Source of the DNA: Prevotella sp.
GTDB lineage: Bacteria; Bacteroidota; Bacteroidia; Bacteroidales; Bacteroidaceae
Direction: 5' to 3'
NCBI GenBank assembly: GCA_024680755.1
Contig: JAILBT010000037.1
Span: 3,768-67,767 of the forward strand
Length of the DNA stretch: 64,000 nucleotides
Shown: piece by piece, positions 6,647-58,218 of the stretch
Layout: every line of letters starts with the position of its first letter
Numbering within the stretch: the first letter of the stretch is position 1
Translations under genes and position numbers: made by a program
Notes under the pieces: model-generated
Databases searched by the model: none
Told to the model about the DNA's origin: nothing
The model's input: only the letters and a program-made list of their open reading frames with translations

Positions 6647-6763
6647 TGCTTTTGCCCCTACAGGGCGTGGGCTACGCCACCTGCTACCCAGGGCGTTCTT
6701 GCCTTGCAAGCGACCAGAGGTCGAGCGGCCCCGGGCTGTGTGCTCATTGCCCCTTCGGGGCGT
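6647..6763. repeat. REPIN-like composite palindrome (GCCCCTACAGGGC / CCCAGGGC..GCCCCGGG / GCCCCTTCGGGGC)
   Basis: Three short hairpins; the central one is interrupted by a 30-nt insert. Confidence 0.65.
6698..6727 (-). mobile_element. 30-nt two-hairpin mini insertion element, copy 1
   Basis: Minus strand CGCTCG-ACC-TCT-GGT-CG-CTTGC-AAG-GCAAG, between C and AAC. Confidence 0.7.
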
Positions 6764-15844: not shown

Positions 15845-17455
15845 GTGGGTACATACATCAACAAGGGAAACATAGCCTTCCAGAGCAGTCGCAACAGCGA
15901 ATATGTTGACAAGTCGAGGCTGATAGCCGTTGTCAACCAGACGCTGTTTACCCGACAGCGCTTCAGTTGCGTCAGCCGCTGCCGCCGCTTCGGCAAGTCG
16001 ATGGCGGCAGAGATGCTCTGTGCCTACTACGACAAGTCGTGCCAGTCGCGCCACCTCTTCCAAGACTTGAAGATAGTGGACGACCCGTCGTTCGAACAAC
16101 ACCTGAACAAATATGCCGTCGTCTATGTCGACATGACGAGTTTCATCACTCGCTACCATGACGATACCATCGTAGAGCATATCAACGACGAGGTGATGGC
16201 CGACGTTCACAAGGCATACCCCGACGTGCCACGGCAGGACGGCGACGACCTGATGGCCCTGCTCATACGCATCAACGAAGACACCAGCGAGCAGTTCTTC
16301 TTCATCGCAGACGAGTGGGATGCCATCTGTCGCGAGTTCAAGCCAGGCACAAAAGCCATGGGGGACTATCTGAACTGGCTGCGCCGTATGTTCAAAAGCA
16401 ATGAGGGGCTGACAGTGTTTGCCGGAGCCTACCTCACGGGCATATTGCCCATCAAGAAATACCAGACGCAGTCGGCCATGAACCGCTCGGCCCAAAGGGA
16501 CGCTTGCCTAAGCAAGAACTTCCAGGAGTACTCTATGATAGACCCCATGAACATGGCCGGTCTCTTCGGCTTTACTGAAGACGAGGTAAAGACCTTGGCC
16601 GACAAGCACGGCATGGACTATGGCGAACTGGAGAAATGGTACGATGGCTATCAGATAGGCGACGAGAACCATATCTTTAATCCGAATTCTGTGATGACGG
16701 CATTAAGAAGCAGAAGATGCCGCAACTACTGGGCCAAGACAGCCGCATACGAAACGGTGTCGCACTACATCTCGCTGAACTTTGAAGGGCTGAAGGACGA
16801 CATTCTGAAACTGCTTGCAGGGGAATCGGTCAGGGTGAACACCACAAAATTCCAAAACGACCTGTCCATAGTCAAGAGCAAGGACGACGTGCTCACCGTA
16901 CTTATCCACTTGGGCTACCTTGCCTATGATGATGAGCGCAAGCACTGCTACGTTCCTAACTACGAAGTAGCAGGCGAACTGTCGAATGCCATTGAGGATA
17001 CAAACTGGACACAGGTAGTAAAGTCATTACAACAGTCAGAGGAGTTACTGCAAAACACACTCGCCGGCAATAGTCAGGCCGTGGCACGGGGCATCGATCT
17101 GGCACACGACGAGAACACCAGCATCCTCGCCTACAACGACGAAAACTCGATGGCCTGCGTGCTCTCGATAGCCTACTATGCCGCCCGCGACAAATACATC
17201 GTTCACCGCGAATACCAGAGCGGCAAGGGCTTTGCCGATCTGGTGCTGATACCCCGCAAGCATACAGACTCGCCCGCCGTCATCATAGAGCTGAAATACG
17301 ACCATACCGTCGATACCGCCATCAGCCAGATACTGCGCAAGCAGTACCCGGCAAAGGTAGCCGAATATGCCGACCGACTGCTCTTGGTAGGCATCAGCTA
17401 CGACCGGGAGAGCAAGCGGCATGAATGCAAGATTACAGAATACAAGAAAGAATAG
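15845..17455 (+). CDS. AAA-ATPase-like + C-terminal PD-(D/E)XK nuclease protein, subfamily a, copy 1 (GTG start)
   Basis: YVDKS, Walker A SRCRRFGKS, Walker B FIADEWD, LTGILP, FGFT, WYDGY, GFADL...IIELK. Confidence 0.88.
   Translation: MGTYINKGNIAFQSSRNSEYVDKSRLIAVVNQTLFTRQRFSCVSRCRRFGKSMAAEMLCAYYDKSCQSRHLFQDLKIVDDPSFEQHLNKYAVVYVDMTSFITRYHDDTIVEHINDEVMADVHKAYPDVPRQDGDDLMALLIRINEDTSEQFFFIADEWDAICREFKPGTKAMGDYLNWLRRMFKSNEGLTVFAGAYLTGILPIKKYQTQSAMNRSAQRDACLSKNFQEYSMIDPMNMAGLFGFTEDEVKTLADKHGMDYGELEKWYDGYQIGDENHIFNPNSVMTALRSRRCRNYWAKTAAYETVSHYISLNFEGLKDDILKLLAGESVRVNTTKFQNDLSIVKSKDDVLTVLIHLGYLAYDDERKHCYVPNYEVAGELSNAIEDTNWTQVVKSLQQSEELLQNTLAGNSQAVARGIDLAHDENTSILAYNDENSMACVLSIAYYAARDKYIVHREYQSGKGFADLVLIPRKHTDSPAVIIELKYDHTVDTAISQILRKQYPAKVAEYADRLLLVGISYDRESKRHECKITEYKKE
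16484..16516 (+). mobile_element. 33-nt two-hairpin mini element, in frame (RSAQRDACLSK), copy 2
   Basis: CGCTCG-GCCC-AAA-GGGA-CG-CTTGC-CTAA-GCAAG between AAC and AAC codons. Confidence 0.75.
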
Positions 17456-17479
17456 AATAAACAAAAAAATAACAAAGAT

Positions 17480-19999
17480 ATGAAAAAAGTATTCAAGTAC
17501 ACATGGGCAGCCCTCGCACTCATTGCGCTGGCAGCCTGTTCAGACGACACCACTGAAAGCGTCAGCAATAATACGACGCCTACCGACCCTACACCCACGA
17601 CGGGGAAGGAGGTGATTGCGTTCTCGCCAGAAGGTAGCGGAACGACACGTGCCGTCGACGACCCCACAGGTTTCACTAGTAGTACCAAGGTGGTGATGCG
17701 AATCAAGGCGCAGAACGGTACGGAAACGGACTGGGACGATTATCGCTATACGCAGGCCATCATGACAGCTGCAGCACAAGTGAGCAGCGACGCCTGCAAT
17801 ACAGATTGGGGACTTACGGGAGCACACTCGCATCTGTCGTATTTAGAGATGCCTACCAACTATACCCGCTATTGGGACGATGCCTTCGGACGCAATTCGA
17901 AGCTTACCATCTATGCTTTGGCCATTCCTAACCTGTCGAATCCCACAACACTTAACAACAACATCCTTGACCACACCATTGACGGTACAAAAATCAAGAA
18001 GGTGGATGATACAACCAATCCAAACTGGTACACTATCAACTCGTCTGCTACGGAGAACACCAAAGTCATGTGGACTGTTCCTAAGGTTCAAGACGGTACA
18101 ACTTTCACTACTTACGACCTTGCCTATAGCAACAATATCCGTTCGGACGTTGGTACAACCGATGTCAAAATGAAAGGCCGCTACAAGCAGACCTATTCCT
18201 CAAGCACTTGGAGCAAGTCTATGGACTGGGGGCGTCTGGAATGGGAAGCACAAACGGGTAGCTCTACTGTTGGTAAGTTCGACCAGGGACATCTGGTGTT
18301 CCAGCATGCCCTTACTTATCTGGAAATCAACCTGACAGAGGGTGCAGGCTTCGACGATACTGCTAACACGGATTTTGTTTGGACCAGCAAGCCTTCTGGC
18401 TCTAAGCAGGCATTTAAGATGATAGGTTTCCCGATAACTGGCCAGCTCGACCTCACCAAGGCACTCAATGCAGAGGGTATGTGGACTCCCACAACGCCTA
18501 CAGCAGGTACCGACGATATCATCCAGCTGAAAGAGACCCGTTCGCAGGACAATGTAACCACCTTCAAGCTTGAAGGCTATGTTATTCCAGGAACCAACCT
18601 CGACGAGAACAACAGCAACCTGTTTGAATTTGAGATTGACAATGCCAAATACTATGTCACCGGCGAACAGATAGCAACGGCTATTTTAGCTCATACGAAT
18701 ACTAACACCGACGAGGCTACAAAGACTATGGCTGGCAAGCATTATGTCATTAACCTGACGGTAGGAAAGACGAAGGTTACGAATATCACTGCCGCCATCC
18801 TTCCTTGGGAAGATGTGAATACGGCACAGACTGATGCTGTCAATACCCACTTCTCTTTCATATTTGAGGATCGTGGCACACAGCTTAATGGCACTACGGG
18901 TAATGCCGACAAGTTCGACCTCTATCGTGCAGCTCGAGATGCAGGTAGCTTCATCGACAATATCACGACGGATGGTACACCAGCCACCACAACTACGTAT
19001 GATTACAACTGGGGAACTGGATATACGGAAGGGGCCGCCCCCAACAAAGCCACAAAAACTTACAACTCCACAACCAGCCGTTGGGAGGCTACCAACTGGT
19101 TCTGGAAGGACAACAAGACGTGGTATCATTTCCGTGCAGCAGGAAGAGGTGAGAGCACTTCGGGTGAAGTTACAGTTTCTAAAGATGCCACTAATGGCGA
19201 CTACTATACTATCCAAAATGGTCCAATAGACGGTAGTGGAACGTATAAGGATTGGGTATGGGGTGCTCCGTTCACAAAGAAGGACAATACATATAAGATA
19301 ACTTATACTTCCACAAATGGTTTCGACAACAACCAGCCTGAAACTACCACCAAGCAGATTGCACCCGCTATCGGAGCCACCACAGATGTCATTAACATGC
19401 TGCTGTTCCACATGACCAGCCAGATTACCGTGAACCTGACCACAACTTCTGGCGACGATAAGGTTGTGCTGCAGGATGGAGACACAAAGACTCAGGTGAA
19501 GATTGTGAGATTCCTGCCTACGGGTAAGGTGCGCATGGGTACTGGAAAAGTGGAGGCTGATGGCACCAGGGACACAGGAACTGGTGTGGCTATGACAGAT
19601 GCTGCAACTTCCCATACAGCGGCCACTGCTGGAGTCGCTGAGAAATTAGGGAACTTTACTTATGGTATGGTTCCTCAGCCGTTGACAGGATGGGGTGATG
19701 CTATCGGACTGGAAATCACCACACCCGATAACAATACATACTATGTGAGAGACCTGAGCACCATTACGGCAAAGGTGTCCGCTACGGATCCGTACAGCCT
19801 GAAAGAGACAAATCTGAAGAATCCGTACACCCTTGCAACTGGGTCGACAACAGATTATGTTATCAACGAGTGGTTCCCCCACTACAAGTATGTCTACAAC
19901 ATCACTCTGAAGAAGAAAGGCATCCTCGATATCACCGCTGCCATCCTGCCTTGGGAGGTTGTTGTGGGCAACAACATCGACATCGACCTGGAGAACTAA
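17480..19999 (+). CDS. Double-length fimbrillin-like lipoprotein 3
   Basis: LAAC, TTRA, YWDD, FQHALT; ITAAILPWE occurs both mid-protein and at the C-terminus. Confidence 0.8.
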   Translation: MKKVFKYTWAALALIALAACSDDTTESVSNNTTPTDPTPTTGKEVIAFSPEGSGTTRAVDDPTGFTSSTKVVMRIKAQNGTETDWDDYRYTQAIMTAAAQVSSDACNTDWGLTGAHSHLSYLEMPTNYTRYWDDAFGRNSKLTIYALAIPNLSNPTTLNNNILDHTIDGTKIKKVDDTTNPNWYTINSSATENTKVMWTVPKVQDGTTFTTYDLAYSNNIRSDVGTTDVKMKGRYKQTYSSSTWSKSMDWGRLEWEAQTGSSTVGKFDQGHLVFQHALTYLEINLTEGAGFDDTANTDFVWTSKPSGSKQAFKMIGFPITGQLDLTKALNAEGMWTPTTPTAGTDDIIQLKETRSQDNVTTFKLEGYVIPGTNLDENNSNLFEFEIDNAKYYVTGEQIATAILAHTNTNTDEATKTMAGKHYVINLTVGKTKVTNITAAILPWEDVNTAQTDAVNTHFSFIFEDRGTQLNGTTGNADKFDLYRAARDAGSFIDNITTDGTPATTTTYDYNWGTGYTEGAAPNKATKTYNSTTSRWEATNWFWKDNKTWYHFRAAGRGESTSGEVTVSKDATNGDYYTIQNGPIDGSGTYKDWVWGAPFTKKDNTYKITYTSTNGFDNNQPETTTKQIAPAIGATTDVINMLLFHMTSQITVNLTTTSGDDKVVLQDGDTKTQVKIVRFLPTGKVRMGTGKVEADGTRDTGTGVAMTDAATSHTAATAGVAEKLGNFTYGMVPQPLTGWGDAIGLEITTPDNNTYYVRDLSTITAKVSATDPYSLKETNLKNPYTLATGSTTDYVINEWFPHYKYVYNITLKKKGILDITAAILPWEVVVGNNIDIDLEN

Positions 20000-20005
20000 A
20001 GGCAC

Positions 20006-20126
20006 CTGCTCGACGGGATTTGCAATCCCGTCGCAGTGAGTATCGGGATTTTCAATCCTCTCACGCTAAGAGCGCATTATAAATGCTGATATTCACTGCG
20101 GTCGGATTGCAAATCCGACCGAGCGG
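20006..20126. repeat. GATTTGCAATC-type REP doublet
   Basis: GCTCGACGGGATTTGCAATCCCGTCGC ... GCGGTCGGATTGCAAATCCGACCGAGC as an inverted pair. Confidence 0.8.
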
Positions 20127-20306
20127 CGAACTAAAGAAAGCTGATGTCTGAAGGCTGAAGGCTGAATGAACGTTAAAAAAGCAAAAAGAAAGGAACCGAA
20201 AAGCGATATTTATACAGAATTTATTAAATTTGTAGCGAGACCTTCCGCAAAGGCGGATACTCGCAAATAAATAGTAAATCGTAAATCCGTAAATAGTAAA
20301 TAACAT

Positions 20307-21911
20307 TTGGGTACATACATCAACAAAGGAAACTTCGCGTTCCAGGGCACAAGAAACAGCGAGTACGTTGACAAGTCGGAGCTGATAGCCATTGTCAACA
20401 AGACACTGCTGACACGCCAGCGTTACAGCTGTGTGTCGCGCAGCCGCCGTTTCGGCAAGTCGATGGCGGCTGAGATGCTGTGTGCCTACTACGACAAGTC
20501 GTGCGACTCGCGCCATCTGTTCCAAGACCTGAAGATAGCCAGCCATCCGTCGTTCGAACAGCACCTGAACAAGTATCCTGTCATCTATGTGGATATGACC
20601 AATTTCGTAACGGATGCGTGCGATGATATTGTTGATTGGCTTGATAATGCACTTGTCAGTGACATCATCAAGGCATATCCTCAGGTGCCAACGGAGGGAA
20701 CACGTAAACTGATGGATTACCTGATGCGCGTCAACGATGCTACCACAGACCAGTTCATCTTCATCATCGACGAGTGGGATGCCATCTGCCGTGAATACGC
20801 TTCTAAGCCGGAAGTGGTTGACCGTTATGTTGGTTGGCTGCGACGCATGTTCAAGAGTGTCGACGGCTTCAAGGTGTTTGCTGGGGTCTATCTCACAGGC
20901 ATACTACCGATAAAAAAATACAGCACACAGTCGGCCATGAACCGCTCGGCCCAAAGGGACGCTTGCCTAAGCAAGAACTTCCAGGAATACTCTATGGTGG
21001 AACCCAGAAGCATGGCTCCCTACTTCGGATTCACCAAGGACGAAGTGAAGTCGTTAGCCGAAAAGCATGGCATGGACTTCAGCGAGTTGGAGAAATGGTA
21101 CGACGGCTATCAGATAGGCGATGACCAGCATATCTTCAATCCTAACTCGGTGATGCAGGCCATAGACACCCGTCGCTGTCGTAGCTTCTGGGCATCGACA
21201 GGGGCTTTCGACACTGCTGCCCACTATATCAGCATGAACTTCGAGGGACTGAAGGACGACATCGTGAAGATGCTGGCTGGCGGCCGCTGTTCTGTTGACC
21301 CAACGGGATTCCAGAATGACCTTTCGGTCATACACTTTAAAGACGACGTGCTGACCGTGCTCATCCATCTGGGATACCTCTCTTACGACTGGAAAGCCAA
21401 CGAGTGTTATATACCCAACCACGAAGTGGCAGGCGAAATGGTCAATGCTGTCAGGAAAAACAACTGGACACAAGTGTATCATGCCATCGAGAAATCGGCA
21501 AATCTCCTCGAAGCCACCCTCCGTGGCGACGAAGAGGCTGTGGCCCGCGGCATAGACGCGGCGCACGACGAAAACACAAGCATACTATCGTACAACGATG
21601 AAAACTCCATGGCCTGCGTTTTGGCAATAGCTTACTATGCGGCTCGCGACAAGTACATCGTACACCGCGAGTATGCGTCGGGCAAAGGCTTTGCCGACTT
21701 GGTGCTGATACCTCGTAAGCATGTCGATTCGCCCGCCGTCATCGTGGAACTGAAGTATAACAAGGATGCCGACACCGCCATCAGCCAGATACTACACAAG
21801 CAGTATCCTGCAAAAGTGGCTGAGTATGCCGACAATCTGCTCTTGGTAGGCATCAGCTACGACAAGGAGAGCAAACGGCACGAATGTAAAATTGAAAAGG
21901 TGAAAAATTGA
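20307..21911 (+). CDS. AAA-ATPase-like + PD-(D/E)XK protein, subfamily a, copy 2 (TTG start)
   Basis: Collinear paralog of 15845-17455; SRSRRFGKS, IIDEWD, GFADL...IVELK. Confidence 0.88.
   Translation: MGTYINKGNFAFQGTRNSEYVDKSELIAIVNKTLLTRQRYSCVSRSRRFGKSMAAEMLCAYYDKSCDSRHLFQDLKIASHPSFEQHLNKYPVIYVDMTNFVTDACDDIVDWLDNALVSDIIKAYPQVPTEGTRKLMDYLMRVNDATTDQFIFIIDEWDAICREYASKPEVVDRYVGWLRRMFKSVDGFKVFAGVYLTGILPIKKYSTQSAMNRSAQRDACLSKNFQEYSMVEPRSMAPYFGFTKDEVKSLAEKHGMDFSELEKWYDGYQIGDDQHIFNPNSVMQAIDTRRCRSFWASTGAFDTAAHYISMNFEGLKDDIVKMLAGGRCSVDPTGFQNDLSVIHFKDDVLTVLIHLGYLSYDWKANECYIPNHEVAGEMVNAVRKNNWTQVYHAIEKSANLLEATLRGDEEAVARGIDAAHDENTSILSYNDENSMACVLAIAYYAARDKYIVHREYASGKGFADLVLIPRKHVDSPAVIVELKYNKDADTAISQILHKQYPAKVAEYADNLLLVGISYDKESKRHECKIEKVKN
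20943..20975 (+). mobile_element. 33-nt mini element, in frame, copy 3
   Basis: Identical to 16484-16516 and at the homologous position. Confidence 0.75.
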
Positions 21912-21992
21912 AAAATAAATAGGACTCGCTTCAGCGCTTTTATAAAGCGTAGCGACTAAAAGAAATCGTAAATCCGTAAATAGTAAATAGCC

Positions 21993-23588
21993 ATGCGTTA
22001 TCCGATAGGCATACAGAGCTTCGAGAAAATCCGCAAGGGTGGATTTGTCTATGTGGACAAGACCGACTTGGTGTACAAGCTGGCCCAGGGCAGCGTGTAC
22101 TTCCTCGCACGTCCGCGCCGATTCGGAAAGAGCCTGCTCATCGACACACTGCGCTGCTACTTTGAAGGACGGCGCGACTTGTTCGACGGGCTTAAGATGC
22201 CGGAGCTGGAGACAGAATGGCAGCAGTAGCCCGTGGTGAGTTTCGACTTCAACCCAGGTCACAAGCGAACAAACTCAGGGCTAAACGAATACATCCTTGG
22301 GGTCATAGCAAAAAATGAAAAGAAGTATAACATAAAGCCTTTCACTGAGGAAGGTACGAGAAAGCCTTCCCTCGATGCAAGCCTGCGCTTCAACCACCTC
22401 ATAGAAGAGCTGCACGGAAAGACAGGACAGCAGGTGGTGGTGCTCATCGACGAATACGACAAACCGCTACTCGACCTCTTAGGAACAGACAAACCTGCCG
22501 ACAATGAGCAACTCAAGGCCAACCGCGAGTTGCTGAGGAATTTCTTCTCAACGTTTAAGGCTACTGACCAGCACTTGCGCTTCGTTATGCTGACAGGGGT
22601 GACGAAATTCTCGCAAGTCACCATGTTCAGCGGATTTAATCAGCCTGACGACATCTCGCTCGACCAGGACTACGACACATTGCTCGGCATCACCGAGGAA
22701 GAACTGTACAGCACCTTTGCAGACGGCATCAGCGAACTGGCAGCAGCAGAAAACAAGACCGAGGAACAGACCAAGGAGCGTATGAAAATGCGATACGACG
22801 GCTACCACTTCAGCGAGAGGATGAAAGATGTCTATAACCCGTTCAGCATACTCAACGCACTAAAGAAGAAAAAACAACGTGACTACTGGTTCGACTCGGG
22901 CACACCTGAATATGTGGTCAGGCTGATGGCCAGTACTCATGAGAACGTGATGAAATACACCAACGAAGAGCATCAACTCGACGAATTCATGAAGTATAAG
23001 GCAGATACGGCGCGCCCCCTGCCCATGCTCTTTCAGGCAGGCTATCTCACCATCAAAGGCTATGACCCAGACTGGGACACCTACCGTCTCGACTTCCCCA
23101 ACCAGGAGGTGAAGCGAGGTTTTATCACCCTGTTAGCCAACGATTATCTTGAGCCAAAAGAGAATGCCGAAGGATGGGTAAAGAAAATGTTGAAAGCCAT
23201 GCAGACTGGCGACACCGAGCTGGTGCGCCGCCTCTTTACCAGTTTCTTAGCAGAGACACCCTACTCGATGCGCCCGAAGAAAGACCTGAAGGACCGCGAG
23301 CTGTACTTCCACTACACGTTCTACCTGCTGATGCGCCTCATATCCTGCTATACCGTATATACGGAGAAGCAGCTCTCGGAGGGCCGTGCCGACTGCATCG
23401 TGGAGACGCCAAAGTACATCTACATCTTCGAATTTAAGCTGGACGGTACGGCTGCCGAGGCCCTGCAGCAGATAGAGGACCGAGGCTACGCCAAAGCATA
23501 CGAGTCCGATGGGCGCATGATATATAAGATAGGTGCCTCCTTCTCGAGCAAGACAGGAACCGTAGAGGAATGGGAGGTTATACATTGA
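21993..23588 (+). pseudogene. AAA-ATPase-like + PD-(D/E)XK protein, subfamily b, copy 1; single in-frame TAG at 22227-22229
   Basis: ORFs 21993-22229 and 22233-23588 are in the same frame; the paralog at 26080 has CAG TAC CCC where this has CAG TAG CCC. Confidence 0.85.
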
Positions 23589-57410: not shown

Positions 57411-57509
57411 ATTATAAACTCCATCTGATTTCTGCTGCAAAATTAGTCAAAAATCTCCAAAGTTGCAAGGATTTGGCTATATTTCAACAAAAAAGAACCG
57501 AAAATAGAG

Positions 57510-57721
57510 GAAATTCATCTGAAGAAAGTCCGCTACGTAGTTTCTCGACCTCACTTGCAGTTTGTATGTACCCAGTGCCCTGTCCTGTCCTACACGTCTT
57601 TTCAGACTGGCAATGTCCTTATCGAATGCGCCCAGCAGAGTCTCGTATTCACTGCCGAAACCTTGATAGGCATTCTTTGCAAGCAAAGCGTCGCAAGCGC
57701 CGAGCGGCGCACCATCTTTGC
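57510..57721 (-). pseudogene. Fragment of a Bacteroidales tyrosine integrase (SAM-like region)
   Basis: After removing the 32-nt insert it reads AKMVR-NAYQGFGSEYETLLGAFDKDIASLKRRVGQDRALGTYK; recognised from memory of this family. Confidence 0.65.
57675..57706 (-). mobile_element. 32-nt two-hairpin mini element, copy 4 (frameshifts the integrase relic)
   Basis: CGCTCG-GCGC-TT-GCGA-CG-CTTTGC-TT-GCAAAG between CGC and AAT codons. Confidence 0.75.
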
Positions 57722-58218
57722 TGGCGAAAATGAGAAAGACTGCATGACAGAACTCAACGAATTGGTCAGAGGCATATATATGCCTTTTTTAAGGGAAGCC
57801 GATTCTGTTGATACCTCAATATATGCTGCCACTAATGAATTCAGTGAGTAGTCGCAGGGACAACGTGACAGCACATCGTCATCTGCGTGAATGGCGACAA
57901 CACCTTGCATAATATCAAGAGCGACGAGGAGCATTGGAAGGCTGCGTTTGAGCGGGGGGACAGAGTGATGCTGGCATCCGCTCTGAGGAAAATGCCGACC
58001 TGAGCTCTCTCAGTGCAGGGGCTGGCACAGGGCCTGCCCCTACGCTGAGAGAGCAAGCGCACAGCATATAAAAATCTTAATTTTCTGCCAAAAAATTAGG
58101 CAGTTAATTTTTTTTTGCCTAACTTTGCCCCCACGTTGCAGGCCGAGCCCGCGGGTGAGGCCGTGTGGCGTATGCGAACAATTTACTTACCCATGTAATA
58201 ACTAAAACAGTTAACACA

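Follow-up and report, generated by a model that had tools for sequence, protein, structure and literature searches.

A family of very small double-hairpin elements inserted before AA without target duplication in Prevotella genomes and phages

Introduction

A 64,000-nt stretch of a Prevotella sp. contig (JAILBT010000037.1, positions 3,768 to 67,767; assembly GCA_024680755.1), hereafter called the window, contains several similar sequences of about 30 nt, each of which folds into two hairpins. This raises the question of whether they represent a family of mobile elements and, if so, which machinery inserts pieces of DNA that are this small. The movement of gene-less DNA pieces of fewer than 50 bases has been an open problem since SDRs and double-hairpin elements were described. 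A sequence-only reading of the window had proposed a non-autonomous element with a fixed C^AA target, mobilized by an enzyme of the IS200/IS605 or RAYT type.

Results

The window contains five copies of the element

A loose pattern matched exactly four times in the window (0.05 expected; none of 100 shuffles reached four), which confirms the four copies of the sequence-only reading in position and strand; a fifth copy with a different head, GACT, had been missed. All window copies consist of two abutting hairpins, and the one at 57675 folds weakly (z +0.87).

Copy 1 (6698-6727, minus strand; 30 nt, CGCT head) sits inside the loop (AAC) of a REP-like palindrome within a host cluster of such repeats (6648-6762, minus strand); this host repeat also lies on either side of a Y1 transposase gene on contig C55. 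Copy 2 (16484-16516, plus strand; 33 nt) lies in frame in an AAA-ATPase_like/PDDEXK_9 gene (15845-17455), to which it contributes the peptide RSAQRDACLSK. Copy 3 (20943-20975, plus strand) is identical to copy 2 in sequence and occupies the same codon of the paralogue at 20307-21911; the two copies probably go back to a single event. Removal of these copies had been thought to restore the reading frames, but since both are 33 nt long, both frames stay open in their presence and nothing needs restoring. Copy 4 (57675-57706, minus strand; 32 nt) lies in the remnant of a tyrosine-integrase gene (about 57474-57727), a short match of only about 72 aa and not an intact gene.

The additional copy 5 (21923-21962, plus strand; 40 nt, GACT head, long hairpin 2) is inserted in an array of TAAATCG/TAAATAG heptamers (21913-21989), where it replaces one T. 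The unfilled form of this array (20265-20303, plus strand) carries a T, at 20275, where copy 5 would stand; this junction was taken from direct reading of both arrays, as MAFFT set the gap differently. The hairpin 2 of copy 5 is of a type found under CGCT heads as well, and the copy reaches an E value of only 4.3 on a covariance model of the short form.

The region 15845-23588 contains fimbrillin-like genes in alternation with three AAA-ATPase_like/PDDEXK_9 paralogues, two of which have the same heptamer array in front of them. A different multi-palindrome repeat, distinct from the double-hairpin family, is located at 19996-20127 and has a high read depth in gut runs.

The two hairpins are maintained by covariation

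The element begins with a 4-base head ending in T (NNNT), followed by hairpin 1, closed by CG..CG, and directly thereafter by hairpin 2, closed by CTT..AAG. Besides CGCT, the heads GACT, GATT, TAAT, TGCT and TCAT occur. Copies are 27-47 nt long, and nested composites exceed 100 nt. Across the 297 copies of all loci examined there are 96 forms of hairpin 1 and 116 forms of hairpin 2 in 211 combinations. Pairing of hairpin 2 is built into the copy filter. For hairpin 1, pair 4 is Watson-Crick in 85 of 92 forms versus 56 in shuffles, a difference that is partly built in, since the filter demanded three pairs. The covariation score of a 50-copy alignment was reached by none of 500 shuffles, which bears out the proposal of two hairpins with covarying stems and shows that the double-hairpin structure is maintained by covariation. 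The stem 1 variants given before (CCC/GGG, CGC/GCG) do covary, but this description omitted the many copies with a mismatch at the third pair, which is A-T, G-C or a G.A/A.G mismatch; the latter accounts for 25 of 28 internal mismatches. DNA folding energy together with this mismatch favours the CGCT strand in 101 of 108 cases; DNA and RNA folding energies disagree on which strand is functional. Rfam gave no match on five copy-rich loci.

The family is abundant in relatives of gut Prevotella

In the source genome (G000; 2.53 Mb, 80% complete), a structure-aware scan found 29 CGCT-headed matches, one of which is probably due to chance, while two simulated genomes gave 1 and 0. The covariance-model scan suggested in the sequence-only reading was run with a model of 50 copies (150 of 2905 candidates scored) and gave at least 38 matches, at least 33 of them below E 1e-5. 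Of 200 genomes of the same genus, 95 had a match, 41 of them with 10-107 copies, and 105 had none (reversed-pattern control: 0-3). A scan covering 1/64 of the genome collection yielded 122 loci, of which 61 passed the structure filter; five of these resemble chance matches, and 52 of the 56 others are labelled Prevotellaceae, Bacteroidaceae or Bacteroidales, so that the host is likely to be a relative of gut Prevotella. At the level of the order (300 genomes) and of the phylum (400 genomes), counts were near background, except in one family (f30). One cultured host with a copy is Xylanibacter ruminicola Ga6B6 (L328). Phage contigs carry one to four copies each.

A variant copy occurs twice in a Gastranaerophilales genome (L371, L372), and records labelled Lachnospiraceae (L312) and Akkermansia (L326) contain copies inside REP-like palindromes; binning errors are possible in each of these cases.

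Copies are inserted before AA with subfamily-dependent head junctions

The target was tallied in 87 copies from three genomes (G000, G136, G005), which were searched without requiring AA. In 85 of them AA follows directly 3' of the copy (AAC 54, AAT 15, AAG 11, AAA 5), so that on the opposite strand these copies come right after TT. The base 5' of the copy is C in 42 cases, G in 23, T in 19 and A in 3. The fixed C^AA target assumed before is thus incorrect and has to be replaced by N^AA, mostly AAC. At phage loci, AA follows 34 of 43 matches; some of the remaining matches are due to chance. An element carrying its own AA was considered and dropped, because exact AA-bearing empty sites exist.

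As an empty-site test we used an exact match of the 11+11-nt flanks elsewhere, which 35 of the 297 copies had. The counterpart was cleanly empty for 29 of 30 CGCT-headed sites (many in arrays) and for one TAAT site, whereas the empties of GACT/GATT-headed copies had one extra T in four of four cases; copy 5 follows the same rule. CGCT-headed copies insert cleanly and GACT/GATT-headed ones replace one target T. From this we conclude that the AA end is fixed and that the head end follows rules which depend on the subfamily.

The absence of target duplication, as originally proposed, was borne out by the empty alleles and by flank comparison. At 9 of the 87 sites a 7-base repeat looks like a duplication, but its length equals the period of the heptamer arrays, and it was not taken for a target duplication.

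The elements were recently mobile and prefer loops and arrays

Empty alleles, nesting and the numbers of copies all speak for a very small, non-autonomous element that moved recently and without target duplication. One of two near-identical phages has an additional 39-nt copy in a C^AATT context, 100 nt away from an almost identical copy that both possess; a clean empty site was also evident in a second pair of phages. At site 16484, all 54 aligned homologues (61 fetched) are empty, two of them being 99% identical (best 99.3%), and contigs from the read runs X1 and X5 skip copy 2. The near-identical empty allele has a T just before the site, the window and the filled paralogue a C, which gives a hint of conversion between the paralogues. 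Copies also nest in one another in either orientation, and the outer copy is canonical once the inner one is removed. Other small structured inserts inside copies (L416:4171, L420:9650, L417:359) suggest sibling families of mini-elements.

In the complete genome G136, 14 of 38 copies lie within 2 kb of another (1.6 expected). Hairpin-loop sites hold 25 of 239 copies, compared with 59 of 2534 (2.3%) neighbouring AAY sites, and tandem-array sites hold 69 of 239, compared with 169 of 2534 (6.7%); part of this enrichment may be due to tolerance of inserts at such sites. Among the REP-like palindromes of G000, the AAC loop is filled in six of seven, and ATC, AGC or ACC loops are filled in none of 16 rows. 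The six REP-loop copies are identical in sequence and may represent one insertion spread by the host repeat. A later spread with the host repeat or by gene conversion is likely both for these six and for the two copies in the ATPase paralogues.

In ORFs of at least 200 codons (mechanically called frames), 32 of 38 copies have a length that is a multiple of three, compared with 103 of 192 overall. This excess of in-frame lengths argues that the inserts are kept as peptides and are not spliced out. Integrase relics with one to three copies each, at shared and separate sites, were observed on four contigs of G000 (C8, C111, C129, C136).

No screened gene family is common to all high-copy genomes

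We compared 40 high-copy genomes (G000 and 39 of the 41 with 10-107 copies) with 40 hand-picked zero-match genomes (at least 97% complete); kinship confounds all of these screens. Matches were found in high-copy versus zero-copy genomes as follows: Y1_Tnp in 28 versus 14, four-helix IVP in 34 versus 28, GxxExxY in 34 versus 19, DUF559 in 31 versus 15 and RVT_1 in 21 versus 32 of 40 each. Hence, the families of small repeat-flanked genes are all commoner in high-copy genomes, and reverse transcriptases (RTs) are rarer there. Each family is missing from some high-copy genomes and was rejected as a required mobilizer. Y1_Tnp is absent from 12 of the 40, including G197 (99 copies), G160, G156 and G087, the last of which (98% complete, 35 copies) has no Y1, RT, four-helix or GxxExxY match at all. 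A long-Y1 subgroup is strong in about 11 of 40 high-copy and in none of 40 zero-copy genomes.

The sequence-only reading had suggested looking for a Y1/RAYT gene flanked by the element's hairpins, but none was found among 31 Y1 loci scanned, and the Y1 genes read are flanked by their own, different repeats. Likewise, no head and tail pair enclosing a gene, which would represent an autonomous form, held up in 6.0 Mb, clustering revealed no shared gene among ORFs adjoining copies, and Pfam detected no HUH family in the 132 ORFs of phage G242 and in three other phages. Y2_Tnp (IS91) was found in none of five genomes, where the controls were equally silent. At L001 (G000:C55:17815-18520), beside the only unfilled AAC-loop REP, part of a Y1 transposase is joined to the beginning of a reading frame that resembles a type I methyltransferase.

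A UG26-type RT (PADLOC E 1e-161; L494, L642, L643, L645-L648, and also G231:C21) occurs in eight of the 40 high-copy genomes and is absent from the zero-copy set as far as score and length indicate. At L494, L642, L643 and L645-L648, the RT is preceded by a conserved structured region of about 150 nt, which a long terminal stem closes, and by a conserved ORF; these loci contain no template for the double-hairpin element. A UG27 RT with an RTas346 part was seen in a 122-kb phage, and DGR-like RTs in a 130-kb phage and in two genomes (L612:12208-13821; L602:14260-15570; L496; L498).

With respect to replication, a hand count in the complete genome G249 placed the TT-led strand of 26 of 33 copies on the G-rich (lagging-template) side; many of the G249 copies lie in one host repeat and are not independent. 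In G136, the replichores split 17 versus 17 with four unassigned.

Discussion

How could the copies be inserted?

Our best guess for the mobilizer is an HUH enzyme of some kind. We tentatively favour, at somewhat less than even chances, that the element is copied into a single-stranded target by a rolling-circle-like nick-and-join enzyme of the HUH type, supplied in trans. The observations behind this are the lack of duplication, the one-sided ^AA target, the retained older copy, the nesting and the spread into phages. The local clustering of copies and the orientation of most G249 copies relative to replication also count in its favour. Read on the opposite strand, a copy would start right after (G)TT, the polarity used by HUH transposases. 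The AA-side end, with its constant AAG, would correspond to a fixed 'ori'-like end, and the variable head (CGCT, GACT, GATT, TAAT, TCAT or TGCT) to a looser 'ter'-like end, while hairpin loops and slipped arrays could provide the single-stranded target; both the retained neighbouring copy and the loop preference fit single-strand copying. Several points speak against the HUH explanation. The G.A/A.G mismatch and the DNA folding energy favour the CGCT strand, which is not the active strand of the model, and plain HUH strand transfer does not explain the lost target base. Moreover, replichore bias is absent in G136 and drawn from non-independent copies in G249, and neither an enzyme nor an autonomous form emerged from the screens described above.

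The precise AA end, the variable head, the one-base loss and the retained donor would be explained equally well if a transcript were reverse-transcribed at a nick, the target TT priming on the AA 3' of the donor copy in a SINE-like manner. An RNA route was also proposed for the double-hairpin elements of Allomyces for want of duplications (accessible text of PMC2800124), and of three phages inspected, two carry an RT gene. We nevertheless regard it as unlikely, since RVT_1 is rarer in high-copy genomes and gave no match in G000 (divergent RTs may escape), the complete G136 has just a weak DGR-type match, and the UG26 loci read lack an element template. The connection to IS200/IS605 or RAYT made in the sequence-only reading implies that a Y1 transposase excises a PATE/REPIN-like mini-element as a single-strand circle and re-inserts it. 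Hairpins, one-sided target, absent duplication and conserved mismatch would suit this route, as would the frequent residence of copies in RAYT-associated REPs and the higher frequency of Y1_Tnp in high-copy genomes. It was not supported by our results and appears improbable: 12 of 40 high-copy genomes lack Y1_Tnp, the long-Y1 subgroup is restricted to about 11, Y1 genes bear other repeats, and the loss of a target base in one subfamily is not expected from IS608-type excision and rejoining.

A dedicated transposase might be dispensable if a core host enzyme (a type I topoisomerase, or repair or integrase-like 3'-OH joining) captured the folded oligonucleotide. None of the mobile-gene families screened is required, and G087 carries its 35 copies without four of them; still, the sharp on/off distribution within the genus (105 of 200 genomes with none, 41 with at least 10) and the focus in family f30 better fit a patchy factor, and we consider a core enzyme distinctly improbable. 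Least probable is that the element has no mobility of its own and spreads only via gene conversion, duplication and hitchhiking in host repeats, as could be suspected from the six identical REP-loop copies, from the identical copies at one codon of two paralogues, whose preceding base matches the other paralogue rather than the empty allele, and from recurring contexts in G136, G197 and G249. Hundreds of unrelated flanks with AA alone in common, nesting in either orientation and the new copy at an unrelated site in the near-identical phage pair largely refute this as the sole cause, and it remains as a secondary route.

Beyond the HUH explanation, it is conceivable, if rather doubtful, that the copies live as parasites on a single-strand insertion system which has yet to be described, belongs neither to Y1/RAYT nor to the known RTs, and writes short structured DNA scarlessly before AA in looped-out DNA; the same machinery may then drive heptamer arrays and cyanobacterial SDRs. 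If such a system exists, the family would be the first defined substrate for finding its machinery. In contrast to the SDRs and double-hairpin elements described earlier, the family offers natural variants by the hundred, a target that is defined, pairs of empty and filled sites of recent origin, subfamilies that differ in their junction rules and a cultured host. By adding peptides of 10-15 residues to host and phage proteins and by breaking mobile genes, it shapes the genomes of gut Prevotella and their phages, and an enzyme capable of scarless insertion of short DNA would be interesting both for its mechanism and for practical use.

Comparison with known systems

The family is real and recently active, and it is apparently undescribed: we found no description of it in the accessible literature, including the available text of PMC3733652, PMC3184786, PMC4755523, PMC4478555, PMC4679880 and PMC11417382. 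On the features tested, membership in IS200/IS605, REPIN, IS91 or MITEs was rejected. Of the MITE features, neither terminal inverted repeats nor target duplication is present.

As for IS200/IS605-derived PATEs, insertion 3' of the target on the active strand, as stated for IS608 in the accessible text of PMC5027513, is found here without duplication on the opposite strand, with 2-3 fixed nt instead of the 4-5 of IS608. Junctions that keep all target bases are seen for CGCT heads but not for GACT/GATT heads, and ends shared with an autonomous tnpA element were not found (31 Y1 loci, 6.0 Mb). With REP/REPIN-RAYT systems and PATEs, in the portions available, the family shares a tetranucleotide at the foot of an imperfect hairpin, the non-autonomous nature and a single-strand logic. 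However, the empty alleles define its unit as one head with two unlike hairpins and not as an inverted REP doublet, copies do not lie beside Y1 genes but insert into REPs and coding genes, and a cognate RAYT gene flanked by and co-occurring with the repeats was not found. The REP heads are GTAG/CGTC rather than CGCT, which has no occurrence in the available text of PMC3733652. Rickettsia palindromic elements (RPE), as far as the source text extends, are likewise in-frame inserts that add peptides, comparable to the 32 of 38 copies in long ORFs here, but differ in architecture and lineage; they were compared by description only.

IS91/ISCR and Helitron-like elements resemble the family in the lack of duplication, the one-sided target, the unequal palindromic ends and the imprecise ter end; IS91 has a fixed ori end, and HLE2 inserts at TT (accessible text of PMC13181058 and PMC11417382). 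In contrast, the IS91/ISCR target is GTTC/CTTG, whereas the target of the double-hairpin family is cut right after (G)TT, with 2-3 nt fixed and the next target base free. No transposase or autonomous form was found for the family, and it is far smaller than the rolling-circle derivatives described in the available parts of these papers.

Two kinds of elements come closest to the family. The double-hairpin elements of Allomyces mitochondria (Paquin et al. 2000) share two hairpins, mobility and the absence of a flanking duplication, according to the accessible text of PMC2800124, and the mobilizer of neither is named; they differ in being organellar, with an RNA route proposed, and were compared by description only. 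Further resemblance is found in the small structure, precise insertion, nesting and heptamer arrays of the small dispersed repeats (SDRs) of Nostocaceae (Elhai et al. 2008, PMID 18599681). SDRs are reported to have a common fold preserved through compensatory changes, to occur within heptamer arrays and to nest in one another. Nostocaceae belong to another phylum, and SDR5 targets HIP1 where the double-hairpin family targets ^AA; this comparison, too, is by description and not by sequence. In the accessible portions of PMC5861425, PMC4390886, PMC2884548 and PMC3116915, SDRs are very small, precisely inserting, gene-less repeats with an unknown mobilizer, and none is reported outside Nostocaceae among HIP1-rich cyanobacteria. 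We conclude that the family is of a known but unexplained kind and works like an SDR or a rolling-circle mini-element.
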